The translations under genes were made by a program, and so were the position numbers. Below are positions 11,361 to 64,000 of a DNA stretch of 64,000 nt, piece by piece. The notes beneath the pieces are model-generated. The model saw only the letters and a program-made list of their open reading frames with translations, had not been told where the DNA came from and searched no databases. Source of the DNA: Naegleria gruberi (Eukaryota); the NCBI GenBank assembly GCA_000004985.1, contig GG738880.1. One strand, written 5' to 3'. Within the stretch, counting starts at the first letter, position 1. The number at the start of each line of letters is the position of its first letter.

Positions 11361-13121
11361 TTATTGAATTAGGGCGAGAGTGGCATCTCTCATTTCATAG
11401 TACCAAGTCATTCTTCTTTCAGCATAGTTGAGATAGTCGAAATCAATCTTGGAAAACATGGATTGAAGCATACTCCAAACAGACCAATGCAAATTACTGA
11501 CCATAGACATGACAAGAGCTTGTCTTCTACTCTTTTCAATTAATTCTTCTGTAACATTTTCACAATCAGAGTAGTAAGTCTTGAAAAAGTTAATTTGCTC
11601 ATCATATGTTGGGTAAGCTTCAGGTAAAATACACAATCCACCAAATTCACAAAAGAAATTTCCAATATCAAAGGCAGCATAATTGTAAGCACAATATTCA
11701 AAATCAATTGTGTGGTAGGAGGACTCTTTCTCATTGAGAATAATATTGTGAGCGCCGAGGTCGTTGTGACAGAATTTAACTGGAAAATCCTTGCACAAAG
11801 ATTCAATAAGTTTCACTTCTTCCTCAATCTTGTCCATATTGAGAGGTGAATTTGGTGATAGCTTGTCTCCTCCTCTCTTGTTAAACTCGTCTCTATTGTG
11901 CTTCAAGAGAGCTAACCAACGGAAAGTTCTCTCGAAAATCACAGGTCTAGCTTGCAAGTCATGATAATGAGTCTCCTCTGCAAATGGTTTAACAGTAATA
12001 GAGTGAATACTCTTCATGAGTTTTGCAATTTCAATATAGTGCTTTCTGGCACCTCCTAGCTCATCTAAACCTCCACCCTCATAGTACTTGTAGATCATTC
12101 CATTCTCAAAGGTGGCATAAATTCTAGGGGCAAGATCGTTATAGAGTGTTGAAATTTGTTGAATATAGTGGAATTCAGCTTTACGATCAATCAAATTCTC
12201 TGAATTTTCACCAAAGCAACGAACTAGAACCTTTTGTGGATAATCCAAAGAACTCTTATCATGTTCTCTATGTACAAATTTTACAAGAAAGAGTCTGTTG
12301 GTTGTTCCACCGGTTAATTGTTTAACATGAATGTAATTCTTCAAAACATTCTTTAAAAAGTTCTTTTGTTTCGTCTTTTCATTCAATCCAGCCATATCAT
12401 TTTCATGATGTGAGATTCCATCTTCACCACTCGGAAACAAGGTAGGAGAATCCAAAGAATTAGTATCATCCAAATTGTTATTTGATGATGTAATACTTGA
12501 TGTCATTGCAGCATCGGAGAAGGATTCGGTTGAGGTGACATCATATTCATCAATTGGTGTTGCTTCACCTCCATTATTCAATTTAACATCCAAGTGATGG
12601 ATAGGAATTAAAGTTGTGTGATGAGAGAAATGTTCTTCAACAGCTGTTTCCTCACCAATAACTTTATCCTCAAGTTCCAAACTCTCCGATGATATAACTC
12701 TCTCCATTGATTCTGAAGATTCTACAATAGCCTCTTCTCCTGGAATGATTGAACTTTTCTTGATTGTAATATTCAATTGTTTTTCAATTCTTCCAATTTG
12801 TTGTTGTTGTTCATTATTTGTTTCTGCTAATTGTACAAAATGTTCAGGGAATGCCTTGATCATAAGTTGAGCAATCTTGAATTGAATTAATTCTTCCTCC
12901 GCCTCAACATCTTCTCCTTTACCAATAGGAATATAAAAATTATCAAATCTTGGTGTCTCATCCCTATCTATCAAACTTTCTTGATCGCAATTATGCTGAT
13001 GATGTTGACAATGGCTCGAAACAATTGCTTCTTCCTCCGATGATGATGATAAGGATGATACTACCGATGATGGCAATTGGCTGCTCGGATTTGCAAAATT
13101 CGTTGATTCTTGTTGATGCAT
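11361..13121 (-). CDS. Choline/ethanolamine kinase
   Basis: A single 586-codon ORF. Its C-terminal half contains the Brenner phosphotransferase motif (KFCHNDLGAHNIILNE) and the choline-kinase motif (HTIDFEYCAYNYAAFDIGNFFCEF). The N-terminus is long, acidic and low-complexity. Confidence 0.75.
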   Translation of the reverse strand: MHQQESTNFANPSSQLPSSVVSSLSSSSEEEAIVSSHCQHHQHNCDQESLIDRDETPRFDNFYIPIGKGEDVEAEEELIQFKIAQLMIKAFPEHFVQLAETNNEQQQQIGRIEKQLNITIKKSSIIPGEEAIVESSESMERVISSESLELEDKVIGEETAVEEHFSHHTTLIPIHHLDVKLNNGGEATPIDEYDVTSTESFSDAAMTSSITSSNNNLDDTNSLDSPTLFPSGEDGISHHENDMAGLNEKTKQKNFLKNVLKNYIHVKQLTGGTTNRLFLVKFVHREHDKSSLDYPQKVLVRCFGENSENLIDRKAEFHYIQQISTLYNDLAPRIYATFENGMIYKYYEGGGLDELGGARKHYIEIAKLMKSIHSITVKPFAEETHYHDLQARPVIFERTFRWLALLKHNRDEFNKRGGDKLSPNSPLNMDKIEEEVKLIESLCKDFPVKFCHNDLGAHNIILNEKESSYHTIDFEYCAYNYAAFDIGNFFCEFGGLCILPEAYPTYDEQINFFKTYYSDCENVTEELIEKSRRQALVMSMVSNLHWSVWSMLQSMFSKIDFDYLNYAERRMTWYYEMRDATLALIQ

Positions 13122-34164: not shown

Positions 34165-34303
34165 TTTATTTCATTCTCACTTCTTCATCATATCTACTCC
34201 AATTCATTGACCTTTCCTCTCATAATCGTTACTTGAAACAAATAACCTAGTTTTTTAACACTTTGGCGCCAAAACTATCCGTGACAAAAAATTAGAAAAA
34301 AAA

Positions 34304-37121
34304 ATGCACTCACCAAATTCTTCAACGCTTTCCTCTTCATCAGCCATTCCCTCACCTTTACCTTCTTCCTCCAGCTCCTCTTCATCATCATTCTTCTCCT
34401 CCTCCAGCTCGGATTCCATCAAAGTCTGTGTCAGAGTACGTCCACTCAACGAAAAGGAAAGACTGAAAAACTCACAATCCGTCTGGCGAACCACCAATAA
34501 TACAACCATCTATAGTGTTTCATCACAAGTAAATAGCAATAATAATAATAATAGCAATGGTAATTCATCGAACAATAATAATAATATTGGTAGTAGTAGT
34601 GGTGGTAATTTAGGGATTAATTCAAATATGATGATTCCGATGGTTCCATCGAGTAGTGATGTTAGTTATACGTTCGATCATGTCTATGATCAGAATAGTA
34701 CTACAGATTGTATCTATAATGATATGTGTAAGCATATTGTGACCTCTTCTGTGAGAGGATATAATGGAACAATATTTGCCTATGGACAGACTTCATCTGG
34801 TAAAACATTTACGTAAGTACTTTCGATTCATAATAAGTTTCTGATAGATTAATAATGCTACTAAATTGTTCAAAAATTTGAATGTTTGTGAATATTTTGT
34901 GATTGTTAAATTCAGTATGAAGGGAACAAGAGAAATACATGGTATTATTCCACTCTCAATCAAGGATGTATTTACTACTATCAGTCAAACACAGAGTCGT
35001 AGATTTCAAATTAGAGTTTCGTATTTGGAAATTTACAATGAAGTCATTAAGGATTTATTGGATCCAGAAAATCAAAATTTAAAAATCAGAGAAGATTTTG
35101 TCAATGGAAAGGGAGTCTATGTTTCTGGAGCTAAAGAGGAAGAAGTAGCATGTATGGAAGACATGCTAAAACTCATGGAAAAGGGTGAGCATTATAGACA
35201 TTTTGGAAATACAGCCATGAATGATCAGAGCAGTCGATCCCACACCATATTTAGGATTATGATTGAGTCAATTGATGGTAGTATAGCAAAACAAATGGTC
35301 GAGGAAGAGGATTTTGATATCTATACAACAAATTCAGAAGTTCTCTTCTCAACATTGAATCTTGTGGATTTGGCTGGTTCTGAACGAGTTCTCTACACAC
35401 AGGCACAAGGAGATAGATTGAGAGAGGGTGGCCATATTAATAAGAGTTTACTCACTCTCGGTAATGTTATTGCCAAACTCAGTGAAGGAAATTCGAGCCA
35501 CATTCCATACAGAGATTCAAAACTCACAAGAATTCTCTCTAACTCTCTTGGAGGAAACTCAAAGACTGCCATCATTTGTACAATAACACCTGCCTCACAA
35601 CACTTTGAAGAAACTCACTCCACTCTCAAATTTGCCAACAGAGCAAAGAGCATCAATAATCAAGTTACAATCAATCAAATTATCAATGAAAAGGCCCTCC
35701 TCAAGAAGCTGAAACAGGAAAATCTCGATTGGAAAAACAAATTCCAAGAACGAGTTAATGGTATTGAGGATGAGTTACATAGATCAGAGAGGGAACGAGA
35801 TGAAATTGTAAAATCTTATGAAGAAAAGATTGCCCTCCTTCAAAAACAATTGGAAGAAAAGAATCAATTGGACGACACCATCTCCTCTCTCAGAAAAGCT
35901 CTCCTAGATAAGGAAAAAGATTTAGAATGGATTGAAACAGTGTCAAACAATGAAAAACAACTCTCGAGTCAATTAACACTCGAAAGAAATAGTCTCCAAC
36001 AAGAAGTTAAAAGACTTTCTGAAGAGCACTGCAATAATCTCTCCAAAGTCAAGGAAGATCATACCAAGGAAATTGAAAATCTCACTCTCCAACACAAGAC
36101 CAGTATGCAAGAATTGGTTTATCAACATGAGCTTGAAATACAGGAGCACAATCGAATGTTAACTCAACAACTCGAAGTAGACTACCAAGAGAAGCTGGAC
36201 TCTATTGTAGAAGATTTGAAATCAGAACATGAAAGAGAGAAGGAATCTCTCATCTCTGTTCATAGCCATGCCTTACAACAAGTTCAATCTTCTATCAGTG
36301 AAAGTGAAGCTTTAGAATTCCAAACAACCATTCAATCCCTTCAAGATAATATCAATGAGTTGATTTCAACAAAGGATGAATTAGAACTCAATTTGGATCA
36401 TTCCAGAAATCAAAATTCACTATTATCCAAAGAATATGAAACACTCTCCCATATGATAGAATCCCTTAAAGAACAAGTCGAAGAAAAAGACTCTATCATT
36501 TCAAATCACCAAGAGCAAATTGAGGAATACAAACGTACTTTGGAACGTGTCGATGAGGAATTGACACTTCTCAAAGAGCAACAAATTGATCAACTAGAAA
36601 TTGATCACCTCAAAGATACTGTGCAATCATTGACTGAAACTTTGGAAGAGAAAGATAAGGATATTGAAAAGTTACAATTTGATTGTGAAATGTACAAGTC
36701 AGCTGTTTCCAATCAAAATACAAATAACTTAGAAGAAATAGTTAACGAAAAGAATGCTCACATTTCAAAACTGGAACAAGAAGTAGAAATGAAAGAACGA
36801 ACATTTAAAGAGGAAATGGATGAAGCCATTGCCAGAATACGAGAACTTGAGCAAGAAAAGAATGCAATCATTGTTGGAACCACCTCTCAATTGGAACAAA
36901 TCAATAAGGTTACAGTGGATAATGAACGTCTCACCAAGGAAATTAAAGAGCTACGATCTAAAATAGAATATGGAAAGGCTAAATCCCAACAACTTATCGA
37001 GGAAAGAAAGAGAAAGGAAAATCCAAACCTCGTAGACCATCCGTACTATCCTAAAACTCCAAATTCTGACTTTAAAAAGCTCAAGATGGATGATGAAAAT
37101 AAGGAAAATAAATTTAATTAA
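34304..37121 (+). CDS. Kinesin with an N-terminal motor domain and a long coiled-coil stalk. Proposed exons: 34304..34812, 34916..37121.
   Basis: Exon 1 has a Ser-rich leader, then KVCVRVRPLNEKE...AYGQTSSGKTFT (the P-loop). A 103-nt intron (GTAAGT to TTCAG) joins it to MKGTREIHGIIPLS...SSRSHTIF...LVDLAGSER...HIPYRDSKLTRIL. About 450 residues of heptad-rich coiled coil follow. A poly-Asn insertion sits in a motor loop. Confidence 0.85.
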
Positions 37122-38219: not shown

Positions 38220-38677
38220 TTTTTGTATTTTTTTTCTTTCTTTGACCCAAAAAAGAAAAGCGTAGGCTTTAAGCGCATAAGTTGACTCTTACAACTGGCT
38301 TCTTGCTAGCGTTAAAAAAAGACCAAATTTAGACATGTTATAAAAATATTCTCCAGAAGGAACCTCAACAACATGTTGTCTAGCTCTTTATTATCATCAT
38401 TGCAGTGGTAGGATGACAATTTGCAATGATCTTTGAAGTTGTCATTTCACCATTGCTCCTTCACGGAAAGAATAATCAATTCGTCACACTTTAAAAATAA
38501 TTTAAATTGATGATGATAATGTTGGACTGTAATTTTCGGTCCTATTAAAAACAAATAGTCATTAGGATTTTAAATTTAAACACTATACTTTGGAATTATG
38601 ATTGTAATATTTTCTGATGGCACAATTTATGGATTTAATATTTTAATTAAATTATTTGATGGTGATGATGGAAATAT

Positions 38678-44102: not shown

Positions 44103-44443
44103 TTTTTTTAAATTTGAGAGAAAATTATGAATTGATTAAGGAAATTTGTTTTTGTTACAATGAAGGTTTTTGTTAAAGGTGGTTATAATGAAGAGATGAA
44201 ACTTTGTATGAAGAATTGTGAAAATACGAAACTTAACGAAATAGTGAATTTAATTTTTGAGATGAGCAAATTTAAGTTACTTTAGTATTAACCGTTTTCA
44301 TCATCTCATTGTATGATTAAGGGTGCTGTTCTTCCTTCTCAAACTTTCATTTTACAAATTAAGGAATTTCTTAAAAAGTAAAATTGGCGCCACATTGGTA
44401 ACCAATCTCAAAAATAACAGTTATAAATCCAAAGTCATAAAAA

Positions 44444-47400
44444 ATGTTCTCTTTCAATAAGGTTTCCATCAACTCTACAAGATTTACCTCCTTTCTACTG
44501 CTCTTGTTTATATTTCTTGCTCATCTTTCAATAACCACAACTTTAACTAATAAGGAAATAATTTTGCTTCCTTATTGTTCCTCTGTGGTAGTTTCTCCAC
44601 CTAGCCAGAGATTATCTTCCAATTCACTCACAATAACCGTTACAGCACCTAACGATATTTGGTAAGTTAACAAACTTTCCTATGTGAAATGTTAAATTTC
44701 TAATAAGGTTAATCGTATCGAATCAATATAAACCTCTTCAAAACACCAATGTGGATGCAACAATACTTCTGAGAGCCTACGTTTTCCTCTCAAATCCACA
44801 AGGACAAGCCAAATACATTACCTCCGCCTCAATAATATCTTCCACTTCATTCACAGTTCAGTTTACCAATCTTGCAGCTAATGAACATTATGGATTATTC
44901 TTATTTGATGGGATGTCCTATTTGGAGGTGGAAACTGGTAGTGCACTTCGATTGGTTCCACTTTCAATCTTGTCAATTCATGAATACTCGACTGGGAGTG
45001 CAGCATTTGATTCGTTTAGTCCACAGAATAGTTATGAAAGTTCGATGGGAATGTTTTGTATGTCTCTGGCAGGTAGTTCTCTTCCTTTGAATTATGTTTC
45101 ACAAGCTGATAATGTGAAAAGTAGTCAAATTGATTCGATTAGTTTGCAATCGAACAAGTTGAAAATGAACGGAAAGTGGAATGGACAAATATTCAATTAT
45201 CCAATCACTGAATTTGAAGATGGAGGTTATACCTATGAATTATCGAATGAAATTACTGTAAATTTCCATTCACTTTCCAATACTCAACTCAACATTCCAA
45301 TAACTTTACAGAGATATTTAAGTGCTGCCTTCGAACAAGTCAATGCTCTTGATCATCCAGACGAAACAGCAAGAACAGCAGATCCATCCGAATTAGAATA
45401 TCTATTCGTTGGATATTCCATGAATTCCTTTACCTACAAAGTTAGCACCGATCCCAACAATTCTCCAGAATGGACACAAAATCTTTCAGATAACTACGCA
45501 TTAGAAACAGACATCCCAACTCTCATGACCTATCCATACTATCGAGCAGAATTCCACGAGTTGACTTCTGGAAATCCACTCATGACCATCATTATTAAGG
45601 ATGGAGTTTTGACCATGTCCAAGAAAGTTCTAGGAACAACTTCGATGGAATGTCCAATGGGATCTGTCAGGAATGAAAATCAACACTTTTATCGTGGCTC
45701 TACTTTTCATTATATTGCCTATTCGACTATTCATCCAATGTATACTTTTGATTATTCCACTAGAAATTGGAAGTTGAATACCCAAATTGATGTGAGCTCT
45801 GCTGATGGAAACTTGGTTGCCAATCTAACAAATTTTGATAATACTCTCTCTACAGAAAGTTCTGATCATTTAGTTTCGGTTACTTTATCAGATAATGTCC
45901 TTCAAGATTACGAAACTTTCTTCAATGAACACGTCATCATTGGAAAACCAGATCACCGAACTCCAATCTCTTCCATAACTGACCTAGCTCTCCTCCACAT
46001 AGACGATCTGGGCAACTCAATCTCCGGTCCTCTCATCACCCAGGAAGACTTTCGTCAGGAACTTGATTGGAATTTTGGTTTTTGTGATGAGAAAGTTGGT
46101 TCTCGAATGGGAAATCAATTGTCAAACTTTTTTTCTTCGACTGATTATACTATTGAACAATTGCCAGAATATGGAACGAGATTGAGTTATGAAGGTGGTG
46201 TGCAAGTTGTAAATTCTGGGTCAATTGAGATGAAGTTTTCAAATCATGAATTTTTGCAAGATTTCACAATTGAAGTTGACCAATCTTTGTTGAGATATAA
46301 GGAGCCAAAGGTTGATTGGTTGAATTTTACGGTAATTCCTGACTTGTCTTCTAACGGAAGAAATGCTACGATTCAAACAGATTCGTATAATAGTGGAGAA
46401 GCTGTTGGCGAGTTTAGTGTCGAATTAACTTGTTCGAATCAGATAATGATATTTAATTCAACTGTGCAACTGTTTAGTAATGTTGGTAGCGGTCAGAATT
46501 TCACATCTAGATTTGATATTACCAGCGATTTCGAATATTGTAACACTTTATCGATAGTTTCTTCTTGTAATATCAGAATTTCAGTAACCAGACAGGCATT
46601 ATGGACCAATTTACAAAAGGAACTCAGTACCACAAGAAGTGTCACTATTGATTATGGTTATTTCATTCCAAGATGTCAAATTCAAGTCAATGAGCCTTTC
46701 GTTTGGATTGAAACAATGTTATTAGAATCTGCTTATTTTACTCTTAATCAAGAAAGAGGCGAATTCACTAACAATATTTTAGTCACCTTGAAAACCAACA
46801 GTTCACAATCAGCATTCAATCCAACAATTAGAGCCTCACTTATTCCAAATATAGATAATCCATTTCACTCAATTGGAGACTTTACTCAAATAATGCAACA
46901 AGAATTTGTCACTTTGAATTTTACAATTAAGAGCAGTAACATATCAAGAATTTTATCTGAAAGATCACAAAATACCTTCTATACATTCAATATGAATCTC
47001 ACTCTATTAGAAACTCATTCTTGTTGGTCAACTGAAGGAAAGGGAGGTTTATTTCCATTTTCCTTCCAAGTTTTATACGAATGTCCTATTGGATACACTG
47101 GAATACAATGTGATATTCCAATTTGCTATGGTTTAAACTCAACCAATCCAAATGCATGTTCAGGAAATGGAAATTGCATTTCTCCAAATAGCTGTGTATG
47201 TCATGCAAACTATACTGAAGGAAACTGTTCAATTCCTTTGTGTTTTGGAGTGAGGGGAGATAACTCTGAGGTATGCTCTTCGAAAGGCTCTTGTGTCCAA
47301 GCCAATGTTTGTGGTTGTGAAGATGGACACACTGGATTGGAATGTGAAATTCCAAAATGTTTCAATATTGCTGCTAATGAGAGTGTTGTATGTTCTGGTC

Positions 47401-58048: not shown

Positions 58049-58492
58049 ATGTCATTCAAAATATTCACTTCCTCACAATCCATCTTCATAGTGGCCATTC
58101 TATGCCTCTTCCTTCCACTCCTCATCAATGCCGAAGTTTTGCCACCTCACAAGAGACCTTTCCCAGCAGCAAGCATTGTTGCAGCATGTATTGCAGGTGG
58201 CATTGTTTTGGCGGGAATGACTTTGGCCTTTTTGTTGGCTCTCCCTCGTGTCTTGTTGTATTTGAGAAATAAGTTTGTTGTCGAGGAGGAGGAAGATGAA
58301 GAGGAGAATCAAGATGCCGCTCAAGTGGCCAATAATTCGGTTGTTGCAGGTGGCAGTACCGGTAATGCAAATGTTTCTGCAACTACGGTAAATGGCGGGA
58401 ATAATGTAGAGTTGAAGAGTGTGAGTTCTTCGGGATTGTCGAATAATTCATCAAGTGTTGTGCATTCATCGGCTGCCAATTTGGATAATTAA
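58049..58492 (+). CDS. Small type I membrane protein with a signal peptide, one TM helix and an acidic, Asn/Ser-rich tail
   Basis: A 147-codon ORF with a signal peptide (MSFKIFTSSQSIFIVAILCLFLPLLINA) and a TM helix (IVAACIAGGIVLAGMTLAFLLAL), followed by EEEEDEEEN.... No homologue is recognised. Confidence 0.35.
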   Translation: MSFKIFTSSQSIFIVAILCLFLPLLINAEVLPPHKRPFPAASIVAACIAGGIVLAGMTLAFLLALPRVLLYLRNKFVVEEEEDEEENQDAAQVANNSVVAGGSTGNANVSATTVNGGNNVELKSVSSSGLSNNSSSVVHSSAANLDN

Positions 58493-58838
58493 AATGTGAA
58501 GTGAAATTTAATTGTATAATAAATATGTTTTAGATAATGAAATTGTTTGAAAATATTAAAAATTAATTTTTCCAATTTAGGATTGTAATAATATTATAGA
58601 TGTTGGTATTTACAATTTAAATTTAAAAAAATTTCATCAATTTCATCGTGTGATTGTTATGTAACTTTTAAAAATTTCATCAATTTCATTGAAATGGAGG
58701 TAACCTAGTAAATAATCGCTCTAGTATTCTAATTAATTAACTATTTAAAGAGGAATGTTGTTTTCGGAGCAGCTTTATATTAAAAAAAGAGCCTAAATTA
58801 ATCTTCTGATCAATTAATAATAATAATAGAAGAAAATA

Positions 58839-61800
58839 ATGTTGGGAATGATTAGGAACTACATACACGAATTTAAAGAAAATGTATTTTGCTCTTGGAT
58901 TTGGCCTGATTTACTTGATCCGATCAAGAATTCGTCTAAAGGGTTCAAAGTCTATGAGAAGGAAAATTTGAATGTTAGAGAGGCAACCACAGAGGAGCAA
59001 TCATATTATGAACATCAATTCAAACTCATTAAAGAAGCAACTGTTGGTATGGAGTTTAATGTTGATGATAATTTAAGCAACAATAGGGAGATGACAGATT
59101 CAACGATGAGCATTGGTAAAACAATTGTCTTGTTGCATAGATTGGTGGGTTGGGTTTTGATTCAAATGATTGGGGTGACTCTGTTCATTAAATTGTGTGA
59201 TAGTGTTGCCTTGTATATGAAGAGAAGGGTGTTTGAGTTGTTTGAGAAGGAAAATATTGAAAGCTCTGACTTGCTGTGGTCTGCCACCTTTTATTTGAAG
59301 ATGGAATTCATTTTCAAGAACTTGAACAGATTCTCTGATAATTATGTTTACATGAAGCAAAATTACAGAAAAACTGTAATCTCAAATAGTATGCAAAGTA
59401 TGGTACTGAGAAAATTATCAAAACTGAGCTACATCCAAAAGTTGACCAAGTTCAATTTTGGAATAGTGGATACAATATTAGAGCAAGATGTTCAGTCGGT
59501 GTGCTCTAACATGTATGATCTCCCACGTTTCTATTCACATATTTTCTATGTTTTGCTATGTGTACTTGCTATATATGATTTGGTTGGATTTAAAGCTACT
59601 TTGATAGGCATGCTATTTCTTTTTGTCTCCTCTCCATTTTACTATCATTGTTTGAAGAAACGAGAGGCCAATTCTGATAGAATTACAAAATTGTGTGATC
59701 AGAAATCTAGTACATTATCCCAGTTTATTCAATCTATTCGATTGATCAAAATTTACACATTGGAAAATAGATTTGTTGAGAAGATTTCTAAAATTCAAGA
59801 ATCCTTCAAGATTCATATGAAATCGACAGAATTTCTTAATTTTATTATTGATGCAATTTACTTTGTACAGAGTTTTGTTGTATCATCATTGTGCTTTTTT
59901 ATTTACTGCTACATTGATGAAAATCCTCTCAAGTTGAGCACAGCCCTTACAGTTGTTACATTAGCAGACTCCCTAAAGTATCCTTTATATGCAATTTCCA
60001 GAAATTTTCAATCAATTATGAATAAGAGGCTTGCCATTCGAAGACTTGGTCATTTATTGAATAGTCCAGAACATTCACAGCACAAGAATCATACTGATTC
60101 TTCAATTGTTGAGATGGAAAATGTTTGTGCTAGTTGGTCTATATCTGAAGAGGATGATACAAATTATTGCATCCAAGATGTTAGCACAACAATCAAAAAG
60201 GGCGAACATATTGGTATTATTGGCAAAGTTGCTAGTGGTAAGAGTTCATTGATTTGCTCTATATTGAATGAAACGCATATCGCAGAGGGTATTGTAAGGA
60301 TTAAGGAAAATTTGAAAATTTCATATGTTTCTCAATCACCTTGGATTAGAAATTCTACAATCAAGGAAAACATTATTTTTGGATGTGCAAACTTTGACAA
60401 GAGCAGATATGAACGTGCATTATTTGCTGCTGACTTTAAATCTGATGTTGAGGAAATGCCAAATGGTCATGATCAAGTAATTGGAGAGCGTGGAATTAAT
60501 TTGAGTGGAGGTCAAAAGACAAGATTAGCACTTGCCAGAGCACTTTATCACAATTCTGATTTATACATTTTTGATGATATTTTTTCAGCAGTTGACATTC
60601 ATACAGCTGACAACATCATTAAGAGAGTATTTGTTGGGGAAAACGCCTTCCTTAAAGATAAGACCGTTATTCTTTCTACTCACTTACTTAAATTAATTCC
60701 TCACATGGATAGAACAATAGTTATGGATAAGGGGAGAATAGTTTTACAAGGTAATTATGACTTTTTGATTGGAAAATTGGAAGAAACTGTGGCTTTACGT
60801 GAGCTCTTTGAATCGGCTACCCATTCTGTTAACAGCAATATAGAAGAAAATCAAGAAAAAACCTCCCAAGACAAAGCACTTGATGAAGAAGAAGAGGAAA
60901 GAGAACCTGAACAAGCTGAAGTATCACAAGCTGATACATCCCAAGCCGACGGTCCTTCATTCTCTCTCATTAGACAATTTTTATTCTCAATTCCCAAGAG
61001 TGCAATTTATCTCTCTGCACTGGTTGCCTTTTCTCTTCTTGAGCCTGTTTCAGGAATTCTTAAAGACTATATATTATCTGAATGGTCAACTGATGAGGAG
61101 TTTATTTATCACTCACTCACATTTTACTTGATAATGTACATTTCACAAGGCTTTATCCAAATGTTTGCAATTACCTTGATCACTCATATTTCTAATAATT
61201 TCTTATATGAACTTGCTGATGTGTTCCAAGAAAAGTTAATCTTACAAATATCAAGAACAAAGCTCAGACACTTTGAAGATATTCCAAGTGGAAAAATTTT
61301 GGACAATATTAGATATATCAATGAAATTAGAGATAATATTAGTTTTAGGTTGCGAGATTTGCTGAGAAATAGTTGGCAAGCTATTTGTTCAACTTTTGTT
61401 GTTATTTATTCATTGCCTCTTTCAATACTAATGCTTTTCGTGTCTGTTCCAATCACAAATTATTTCAGAGGTGTCTATACGGATGTTTCTAACAAAATTG
61501 AACAAATCCAAACTGATTTTCATGATCCAACTCCAACAATTAGTGCGGAAATGTTAGATGGTTTGGAGACAATTAGAAGCTATGGTGTTGAGAAATTTGA
61601 ACATCTCATCAACGACATTAGAACTCAAAAAAAGCCAGTTAATAGCCTAGCATACTGTAAGGAACTTGCATTTTTTTGGTTTTATGCTAGGAATGACTTT
61701 TTCAGAATATTAATTTCCTCCCTTAGTGTTCTTGGAATATTCTTCTATTATTTTTGGAACTATGATCCAAACGCCAATATCAAAATAATTCAGATCACAA

Positions 61801-62729
61801 TAAGCTTATTCTATGTGAGAACTTCACAATTGGTCAGAAGTACAGAGAGGATCATGCATACACTCACCAAGGCAAGAACCTCATTTAATTGTGTTCAAAG
61901 AGTCCAGAAATTTTCAAATTCTATCCAAGAGGAAAATTATGGAGATGACAAAAAATCTCTCATTCAAGAAAGCACTTCTGACGAAGGATTGAGTGTTAGT
62001 TTTGATAATATTTCTATGAAATATCGTGAAGAACAAGATTTAGTTATCAAGAATGTAACATTTAGTGTTGCTCCCGGCAGCAAATGTGCAATTGTTGGTA
62101 GAACAGCAAGTGGGAAATCCTCATTATTCAATTGCTTGTTAAGGTTCCAAGAAATTGAGAATGCTAATAACAGTGGAATTTATTTGAATGGAACTGATGT
62201 GAGAGATATTTCATTACGCACTTTGAGAACATCTATTTCCTTCATTCCTCAATCCCCAGTGCTATTTTTGGGAACTTTGAGAGAAAACCTCGACTTTAAT
62301 AATTATAATACTGATGAGGAAATTTGGCGTGCTATTGAACAGGTTGGAATTGATAAATTACTCGAAAGAAAGGTCTGCAAAGATAATCCAAACATTAAGG
62401 AAATTTTAGACTATTCAATTTCTGAAAATGGAAGCAACTTTTCATGTGGAGAAAAACAATTAATCTGCTTGGCTAGAAGTATTTTGAAAAAATCCAAATT
62501 ACTTTTAATGGATGAAGCCACAGCCAATGTTGACTCATTCACCGATTCTCAAATTCAAAAGACTCTTCGTGGGCCACTATTCAACAATTGCACCATCATT
62601 ACCATTGCTCACAGAATTGAAACTGTTAAAGATTATGATAGAATTATCTTGATGAAATTGGGAGAAATTGAAATGAATGATACTCCATCTCGAGTTTTAC
62701 AATACTATGTAGAGAATTACAATCAATAA
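58839..62729 (+). CDS. ABC transporter, C subfamily (MRP-like), full transporter TMD-NBD-TMD-NBD
   Basis: A single 1296-codon ORF. NBD1 has Walker A (GKVASGKSS), the signature (LSGGQKTRLALARAL) and Walker B (IFDDIFSAVD). NBD2 has Walker A (GRTASGKSSLF), a degenerate signature (FSCGEKQLICLARSIL) and Walker B (LLMDEATANVD). There are two six-helix membrane domains. Confidence 0.8.
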   Translation: MLGMIRNYIHEFKENVFCSWIWPDLLDPIKNSSKGFKVYEKENLNVREATTEEQSYYEHQFKLIKEATVGMEFNVDDNLSNNREMTDSTMSIGKTIVLLHRLVGWVLIQMIGVTLFIKLCDSVALYMKRRVFELFEKENIESSDLLWSATFYLKMEFIFKNLNRFSDNYVYMKQNYRKTVISNSMQSMVLRKLSKLSYIQKLTKFNFGIVDTILEQDVQSVCSNMYDLPRFYSHIFYVLLCVLAIYDLVGFKATLIGMLFLFVSSPFYYHCLKKREANSDRITKLCDQKSSTLSQFIQSIRLIKIYTLENRFVEKISKIQESFKIHMKSTEFLNFIIDAIYFVQSFVVSSLCFFIYCYIDENPLKLSTALTVVTLADSLKYPLYAISRNFQSIMNKRLAIRRLGHLLNSPEHSQHKNHTDSSIVEMENVCASWSISEEDDTNYCIQDVSTTIKKGEHIGIIGKVASGKSSLICSILNETHIAEGIVRIKENLKISYVSQSPWIRNSTIKENIIFGCANFDKSRYERALFAADFKSDVEEMPNGHDQVIGERGINLSGGQKTRLALARALYHNSDLYIFDDIFSAVDIHTADNIIKRVFVGENAFLKDKTVILSTHLLKLIPHMDRTIVMDKGRIVLQGNYDFLIGKLEETVALRELFESATHSVNSNIEENQEKTSQDKALDEEEEEREPEQAEVSQADTSQADGPSFSLIRQFLFSIPKSAIYLSALVAFSLLEPVSGILKDYILSEWSTDEEFIYHSLTFYLIMYISQGFIQMFAITLITHISNNFLYELADVFQEKLILQISRTKLRHFEDIPSGKILDNIRYINEIRDNISFRLRDLLRNSWQAICSTFVVIYSLPLSILMLFVSVPITNYFRGVYTDVSNKIEQIQTDFHDPTPTISAEMLDGLETIRSYGVEKFEHLINDIRTQKKPVNSLAYCKELAFFWFYARNDFFRILISSLSVLGIFFYYFWNYDPNANIKIIQITISLFYVRTSQLVRSTERIMHTLTKARTSFNCVQRVQKFSNSIQEENYGDDKKSLIQESTSDEGLSVSFDNISMKYREEQDLVIKNVTFSVAPGSKCAIVGRTASGKSSLFNCLLRFQEIENANNSGIYLNGTDVRDISLRTLRTSISFIPQSPVLFLGTLRENLDFNNYNTDEEIWRAIEQVGIDKLLERKVCKDNPNIKEILDYSISENGSNFSCGEKQLICLARSILKKSKLLLMDEATANVDSFTDSQIQKTLRGPLFNNCTIITIAHRIETVKDYDRIILMKLGEIEMNDTPSRVLQYYVENYNQ

Positions 62730-62820
62730 TAAACAAAAAGATTGAAAATGGAAATCTTCATCTGTGTGAACGATGTCAAAAATGGAACTTTTAATGTGAA
62801 ATTCAATTTTACTACTAATA

Positions 62821-62989
62821 TCACTACCAGGTAAGCTATTAAAAACTAGTGTAGCGATTCTTGCTTATTGCCTGTGGCGGACTGATGTTGGGATGTATCC
62901 GAAGTAAGTGGCGGAAAAGTTAACACAGACTGAAACCAGTGGCGGTACACCAGTTTTTGCTTGGGTGATTGAATCTTATCTGGTAGTGA
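62821..62989. repeat. 169-bp element bounded by a perfect 10-bp inverted repeat (TCACTACCAG ... CTGGTAGTGA) that contains three spaced GTGGCGG repeats; a candidate structured ncRNA or miniature inverted-repeat element
   Basis: The inverted repeat is at 62821-62830 and 62980-62989. GTGGCGG occurs at 62874, 62908 and 62939. This is a local GC-rich island in otherwise AT-rich intergenic DNA between the ABCC stop and the tubulin start. Confidence 0.35.
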
Positions 62990-63246
62990 AAATCCGAAAA
63001 TTTTGGATTCATGTTAATTTCTGTAGTTTAGAAAGGCGCATTCACTTCTCATTGTAACCAAACTTAACTTCCCGCCAACACCAATCACATTTCACATCTT
63101 GGCGCCTTTTCTCGAACCGTTACACACAAAAAATCACATAAATCCTCCACAACCTGCCACCTTTCACACCAACAAAAAAAAAATAACATTACACTTCTCA
63201 TTATAAGAAGCTAGTATAAACTAAACTAAACTAATCCAAACTAAAG

Positions 63247-64000
63247 ATGAGAGAAATTATCAATATTCACATTGGTCAAGCCGGTATCCAAGCTGGTGAA
63301 CAAGTCTGGTCCTTGATGTGTGCCGAACATGCAATCAACCAAGATGGTACTCGTAACATTGACTCTACCAATGGCAACTCTGATTGTTCAGTTTTATTCA
63401 GTGAATCTGCTCGTGGTCGTTACGTTCCACGTAATTTGATGGTTGACTTGGAACCATCAGTTGTTGACAGTGTCAGAAATAGTTCTTTCAAGGAATTGTA
63501 TCATCCAGCTCAAATGATTACTGGTCGTGAAGATGCTGCTAATAATTTTGCACGTGGTCATTATACTGTTGGTAAAGACATGTTGGATGTGACTGTTGAC
63601 AGATTGAGAAAGATTGCTGATAATTGTACTTCATTGCAAGGATTCCAAATTTTCCATTCAGTTGGTGGTGGTACTGGTTCTGGATTTGCTTCACTTTTAG
63701 TTGAAAGACTTTCAGTTGAATTCCCAAAGAAATGTAAACTTTCGTATACAGTTTATCCATCTCCTCAATTGGCCACTTCAGTTGTTGAACCATACAATTC
63801 AGTCTTGTCAACTCATTCCTTATTAGAACACAATGATATCTCAGTTGTTTTGGACAACCAAGCCATTTACGATATTTGTAAACAACGTTTAAAGATTGAA
63901 AGAGCAAATTATCGTAATTTAAATCACGTCATTTCTCAAACAGTTTCTGCCATTACCTGCTCATTGAGATTCTCTGGATCATTGAATGTAGATATGAATG
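63247..64000 (+). CDS. Alpha-tubulin, divergent paralogue (5' portion; the CDS continues past the window end)
   Basis: The ATG is at 63247. The translation is [34 protein letters not shown]...[112 protein letters not shown]. The alpha-tubulin signature after the GGGTGSG loop is present, but the N-terminal region is unusually divergent. The gene does not appear in the ORF track because it runs off the window end. Confidence 0.88.

Follow-up and report, generated by a model that had tools for sequence, protein, structure and literature searches.

Introduction

CACTA elements make a 3-bp target-site duplication. Spy elements, by contrast, are reportedly PIF-like DNA transposons that make no target-site duplication and insert between AAA and TTT. 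Duplication-free insertion is also described for the non-autonomous Helitron2 elements of Chlamydomonas, whose target lies after TTTT (TTTT / T) (PMC3627910), and for the Helentron-derived HINEs, which occupy T-rich, duplication-free sites and carry inverted repeats of about 13 bp and central repeats (PMC4067079). The repeats of Naegleria gruberi are mostly unclassified, as has been reported (PMC12344493), so that an unnamed small element would not be unexpected in this organism.

In this work we analysed a short block of DNA upstream of the mitotic alpha-tubulin gene of N. gruberi NEG-M, within a stretch of 64 kb that is called the window throughout. [quoted passage not shown] The block resembles a MITE in its length of 168 bp, its lack of coding capacity, its terminal inverted repeats, its hairpin potential, its position in AT-rich intergenic DNA near genes and its presence in one strain and absence from another. 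A MITE-like insertion was one of the readings offered in a preliminary description of this DNA; it has been strengthened by a clean empty site with breakpoints at the repeat ends, but the block has no target-site duplication, the sequence searched holds no second copy, and no autonomous partner was identified. We consider it probable, although by no means settled, that the block is a non-autonomous MITE-like insertion that made no target-site duplication.

Results

Position and architecture of the element

The element lies in a 517-bp spacer between two genes that run in the same direction on the + strand. The upstream gene is an intron-free ORF for an ABCC-type transporter (58839-62729, stop at 62729), and the downstream gene is that of mitotic alpha-tubulin (JGI 58607 / EFC42320, ATG at 63247), identified by matching the ORF from 63247 to Data S5 of Velle et al. 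2022 (PMC9036621). The element starts 91 bp past the ABCC stop codon, and 258 bp separate it from the tubulin ATG. The tubulin gene, previously called divergent, is so in the sequence sense only. An assembly gap (run of N) is present at about 2330-2352 of the window.

The features of the element and of the DNA next to it are collected in Table 1. The perfect 10-bp complementarity between TCACTACCAG at 62821 and CTGGTAGTGA at 62980, noted in the preliminary description, is the outer part of a 15-nt inverted repeat with one mismatch (G.U on the + strand), inside which a second inverted repeat of 16 nt is nested. The three GTGGCGG copies have the spacing described earlier and are all in one orientation and in the central part of the element; the motif occurs four times in the 64 kb on both strands, compared with 0.64 expected, and three of the four are inside the element. 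The CCGCC core said to recur downstream is indeed found, at 63072. The element also differs from its surroundings in composition, as had been observed, with 44% GC, whereas the left flank has 25% and the right flank 35%. That it contains no ORF holds as well: the ORFs that overlap it encode 20-49 amino acids only, each is just partly inside, exact-protein look-ups of the small ORFs inside the element found no match, and peptides translated from it gave no real homologue, the two listed matches being translated tandem repeats. Inverted repeats of at least 14/15 matched positions with a gap of 40-300 nt number six in the window, compared with a mean of 2.8 in first-order Markov simulations, and an outer inverted repeat like this one could by itself be expected by chance in the window. 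The fold described below is strong but not unique. The case rests on the combined features, and above all on the comparison of strains.

Table 1. Coordinates of the element, its internal features and the adjacent conserved DNA (window positions)
Feature	Position	Strand	Remarks
Indel unit, 168 bp	62821-62988		Present in NEG-M, absent from a strain about 98% identical; 44% GC, non-coding
Left terminal inverted repeat, TCACTACCAGGTAAG	62821-62835	+	Includes CACTAC and the sole CAGGTAAG of the window
Right terminal inverted repeat, CTTATCTGGTAGTGA	62975-62989	+	14/15 complementary to the left repeat; final A (62989) outside the 168-bp indel
Nested inverted repeat, left arm, AAAAACTAGTGTAGCG	62841-62856	+	88% complementary; paired in minimum-free-energy folds
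Nested inverted repeat, right arm, CGGTACACCAGTTTTT	62943-62958	+	Overlaps the third GTGGCGG copy
Direct repeat, copy 1, GTGGCGGA	62874-62881	+	
Direct repeat, copy 2, GTGGCGGA	62908-62915	+	34 nt after copy 1
Direct repeat, copy 3, GTGGCGGT	62939-62946	+	31 nt after copy 2
Near-palindrome of 19 nt outside the element, AATCCGAAAATTTTGGATT	62991-63009		2 nt from the insertion point; in both strains
Conserved tubulin promoter outside the element	63099-63212	+	Blocks TGGCGCCTTTTCT, CCGTTACA, CTGCCAC and ATTACACTTCTCATTATAAGAAGC common to N. fowleri and N. lovaniensis

An empty site in a related strain

The comparison strain is represented by a 2579-bp contig (L036) of an N. gruberi-like organism in the ENA metagenome assembly ERZ929261, reached from the tubulins of Data S5 (PMC9036621) through the members of their protein clusters to the contigs that encode them. 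Its tubulin is identical to the NEG-M protein at 451 of 452 amino acids, and its positions 29-1054 match window positions 62968-64000, from a point shortly upstream of the junction through tubulin to the end of the window, with 98.2% DNA identity; the 258 bp from the junction to the ATG differ by four substitutions and two small indels. Another contig from this sample (L001) matches the window with 98.3% identity along 3.2 kb. Contig L036 lacks exactly the 168 bp from 62821 to 62988, with colinear flanks: it reads ACTACTAATA/AAAATCCG where NEG-M reads ACTACTAATA, 62821-62988, AAAATCCG, or, in a longer view, AAATTCAATGTTACTACTAATA/AAAATCCGAAAATTTTGGATTC where NEG-M reads AAATTCAATTTTACTACTAATA[TCACTACC...CTGGTAGTG]AAAATCCGAAAATTTTGGATTC. 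The block described earlier as 169 bp long is therefore real, but the unit defined by the strains measures 168 bp. Because the junction bases differ, the boundaries of the indel cannot be shifted, and at most a 1-nt ambiguity, in the A-run, is possible at the insertion site. The breakpoints coincide with the ends of the outer inverted repeat to within 1 nt. Comparison of the filled site, TAATA[element]AAAATCC, with the empty site, TAATAAAAATCC, reveals no target-site duplication, and there is no microhomology at the junctions (A/T...G/A).

Several smaller differences accompany the indel. In the spacer, NEG-M and L036 differ by a 6-bp indel (ATGTGA) at 62787-62792, by an A10/A9 run at 63174-63183 and by a 5-bp indel near 63228, and the spacer upstream of tubulin varies more between the two strains than coding DNA does. 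The left flank, 62800-62820, loosely resembles 62967-62988, exactly 168 bp away (about 14 of 20 positions, gapped); this resemblance is probably due to chance in AT-rich DNA, and it caused the gap to be misplaced in MAFFT and BLAST. We rejected a deletion between direct repeats at these two places, as the match is too imperfect (about 65%, gapped, AT-rich).

A short non-coding block of foreign composition, bounded by terminal repeats at whose ends the breakpoints fall, has the hallmarks of a small DNA element of the non-autonomous kind. As the comparison is with a single strain and no outgroup could be aligned, gain is not separable from loss, and the same indel could be read as a resident, non-mobile quasi-palindrome that the other strain has lost, NEG-M then showing the older state and nothing having transposed. 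The unstable hairpin would have been removed at the base of its stem by replication slippage, or by hairpin cleavage followed by end joining. The breakpoints do lie at the base of the predicted stem, and a loss of this kind agrees with the missing target-site duplication, with the lack of a second copy in the window or the fetched loci and with the polarity of the event, which one strain does not fix. The spacer is moreover fast-evolving (the 6-bp indel and several SNPs lie within 55 nt), and it is in N. gruberi only that the ABCC gene stands between a small TM gene and tubulin. Nevertheless slippage normally needs junction microhomology, of which there is none, and the GC content and repeat motifs of the block are unlike those of the spacer, which suggests arrival from elsewhere; these two objections are mild. 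Loss of a resident palindrome also leaves the origin of the sequence unexplained, and although it is the chief competitor of the MITE-like reading, on balance we regard it as unlikely.

An artefact of assembly or cloning, in the NEG-M reference or in the metagenome contig, deserves mention, as each state is represented by one sequence only and palindromes are prone to artefacts. However, a unique block of 168 bp with internal structure would be an atypical chimera, a de Bruijn assembly with k = 127 would not collapse a 15-nt inverted repeat, and the junction in L036 is clean, with colinear flanks, so that we give an artefact hardly any credence.

Folding of the element and the small RNA reading

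Being nearly self-complementary, the element can form a long hairpin on either strand: both fold into a long rod, at -55.6 kcal/mol (z = -3.4) on the + strand and -45.8 kcal/mol (z = -4.3) on the - strand. The preliminary description had proposed a small structured non-coding RNA with a terminal stem, snoRNA-like or of another class, to which an snRNA may be added. The + strand fold ranks second among 1420 segments of 181 nt in the 64 kb, but other 181-nt segments (12511-12691 and 38341-38566) fold about as well. The values there are -58.9 kcal/mol at 12511 and -51.3 kcal/mol at 38386 with 31% GC, stronger once GC is allowed for. One non-Watson-Crick position of the rod is a wobble pair on the + strand and another is a wobble pair on the - strand, so that neither strand is favoured. 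The hairpin potential is a by-product of the inverted-repeat architecture and not evidence of an RNA gene.

A structured small RNA could also call upon several loose look-alikes, namely a C-box-like CUGAUGU with CUGA, a run like the U2 branch-site region, an Sm-like AAUUUUGG just downstream and, on the - strand, GCUUACCUGG, which is like the 5' end of U1. Rfam 15 yielded nothing at the gathering score for the whole window, and at E <= 10 with relaxed filters no family was matched above chance level in scans of 701 and 206 nt. The wobble pairs are divided between the strands, and internal T5 runs occur on both. The Sm-like site is outside the element and is still present in the strain that has no element, and the element itself is absent from a strain about 98% identical and from two congeners. 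A small RNA gene is thus most improbable, and the preliminary proposal, for which no strand is favoured and which concerns DNA dispensable in the sister strain, is not upheld.

Individual RNA classes were considered in turn and none was retained. They were U1 (GCUUACCUGG on the - strand, AUCUUAUCUGG on the + strand), U2 (AGUGUAGCGAUUCUUGCUUAU; AGUGUAG...), U5, a spliced-leader RNA (CAG/GUAAGC with AAUUUUGG downstream), a C/D snoRNA (CUGAUGU...CUGA), and SRP, vault and Y RNAs. All were rejected: there is no model match, the fragments are isolated motifs with none of the defining stems and loops, the Sm-like site is flanking DNA, and the sister strain does not have the element. An arrangement of two divergent U1-like genes with a central promoter was dropped, as the palindrome continues into the flanks only weakly and with gaps.

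The tubulin promoter in three Naegleria species

Four upstream regions were aligned, those of NEG-M, L036, N. fowleri (L033) and N. lovaniensis (L035). The invariant promoter blocks begin at about 63099, about 110 bp downstream of the element, which has no counterpart by BLAST or alignment at the tubulin loci of N. fowleri (L033, L034) and N. lovaniensis (L035). The 24-nt block ATTACACTTCTCATTATAAGAAGC at 63189-63212 is identical in all four promoters and is probably the core promoter or the region of the start site; a 15-nt near-copy of it lies at 63043-63057, 149 bp upstream. The E2F-like octamer TTGGCGCC at 63099-63106 is likewise unchanged in all four. It recurs at 34263, 44384 and 51518, among which are sites upstream of a kinesin ORF (34866-37121) and in a divergent spacer (44103-44750), and this recurrence suggests a shared cell-cycle promoter element. 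A metagenome tubulin transcript that is 71% identical has a 5' UTR of 77 nt starting with a similar sequence, ATAAATAGAAGAAC; the shortness of the 5' UTR in this related transcript suggests a transcription start close to the conserved block, at a distance of over 200 bp downstream from the element.

These results bear on the proposal of a promoter module, by which the element would regulate the mitotic alpha-tubulin gene through GTGGCGG repeats serving as transcription-factor sites. The repeats are spaced by about three helical turns, copy 2 (GGCGGAAAA) is one base off the E2F-type GCGGGAAA, and genuine E2F-like sites are nearby, at 63069 and 63099. However, in the strain that has no element the gene is intact and the promoter almost the same, conservation among congeners starts only some 110 bp further downstream, and the 77-nt 5' UTR puts the start far from the element. 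It is very doubtful, then, that the element is part of this promoter, and the preliminary suggestion finds no support, although the element may have acquired a strain-specific effect on expression. Neither of the genes beside it needs the element.

Gene order differs among the species. Window positions 58049-62729 were compared with L033:4974-6000 and L035:5175-6000. In N. fowleri and N. lovaniensis a small membrane-protein gene directly precedes tubulin, with no ABCC gene between them, and it is orthologous (44% identity) to the window ORF 58049-58492 (147 amino acids). The ABCC transporter is found between the membrane-protein gene and tubulin in N. gruberi only; it was either gained in N. 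gruberi or lost in the other lineage.

Splice-like ends

The ends of the element contain splice-like motifs, CAG/GTAAGC at 62828-62836 and CTGGTAG/ ending at 62986, which fit the window introns GTAAGT...TATAG at about 3041 and 53290; both are motif matches only. On the + strand, 62831-62986 reads as a GT...AG intron of 156 nt, whose splicing would leave 12 nt, in frame. If the element behaved as an introner, the intron would start with GTAAGCTATTAAAAAC after CACTACCAG and, with perfect repeats, the splice signals would work in either orientation. The element could then belong to an undescribed heterolobosean mobile family that combines duplication-free insertion with splice signals in its terminal repeats, an extension that we advance as a long shot. 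Unlike introner copies, which are inside transcribed genes, this copy is intergenic, and the splice-signal match may be coincidental.

Search for further copies

No second copy was found in the 64-kb window or in about 108 kb of fetched loci, including those of N. fowleri and N. lovaniensis, and the window encodes no transposase or Rep domain. The pattern of paired terminal repeats had no match in viral or prokaryotic collections, and exact-protein look-ups and peptide searches for ORFs of other copies gave none either. Protein searches with tubulin and ABCC transporter queries returned no Naegleria sequence and missed even the protein used as query, though the collection behind them includes proteins of N. 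gruberi, N. fowleri and N. lovaniensis. A scan of JGI metagenomes gave distant tubulins with short flanks only, and a search of the literature on the terminal-repeat sequences and on MITEs or introners in Naegleria had no relevant result.

Discussion

The indel in the tubulin spacer is explained best by a MITE-like element, and its properties can be set against those of the systems described in the Introduction. The missing target-site duplication excludes a simple assignment to Tc1/mariner, hAT, PIF, piggyBac or CACTA. The resemblance to CACTA (CMC) elements lies in the termini, CACTAC...GTAGTG, and in the short repeated internal motifs; in addition to making no duplication, the element differs from them in that its internal repeats are in one orientation and central, and not in both subterminal regions. 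With Spy it shares terminal inverted repeats and a precise, duplication-free insertion, but its site is TAATA^AAAAT and not AAA/TTT.

The Helitron2/Helentron group (HINE, DINE-1) offers further likenesses. Read on the - strand, the site of the element is GGATTTT^TATTAG, which agrees with the target described for the Chlamydomonas elements, insertion is free of duplication, and short (8-15 bp) inverted repeats near the ends are combined with central repeated motifs. However, the repeats of the element are terminal and symmetric rather than asymmetric or subterminal, no separate 3' hairpin follows the 3' repeat, the 5' base on the - strand is C and not T, and the element has no known Rep/helicase partner. 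The resemblance to this group is a lead, and not a sign of membership.

If the MITE-like reading is right, a 168-bp DNA element with 14-15-bp terminal inverted repeats starting (T)CACTAC would have settled in AT-rich intergenic DNA, and the two strains would differ either by a gain in NEG-M or by a clean loss from the sister strain, in both cases with no target-site duplication. We infer that the unit would be moved by a transposase or an HUH-type enzyme, encoded elsewhere in the genome, that recognises the terminal repeats. The GTGGCGG motifs might be recognised as well, and could be the protein-binding sites of the element. The element is of an ordinary type, with one slightly unusual trait, its duplication-free insertion.

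The present analysis removes a false lead, as the block is most likely no RNA gene and has most likely no needed part in the promoter of the unusual mitotic tubulin of Naegleria, and it places the promoter that is in fact conserved some 110-220 bp to the downstream side, with an E2F-like site invariant across three species. The element provides a clean presence/absence marker that can be used to distinguish strains of N. gruberi. Should it prove to be multi-copy, it would be among the first small DNA transposons to be defined in N. gruberi, and its duplication-free insertion would then indicate a less common transposition chemistry. If its splice-like ends were functional, genes could tolerate copies of the element within them, and it could give rise to new introns in the manner of introners, none of which have been reported from this lineage.
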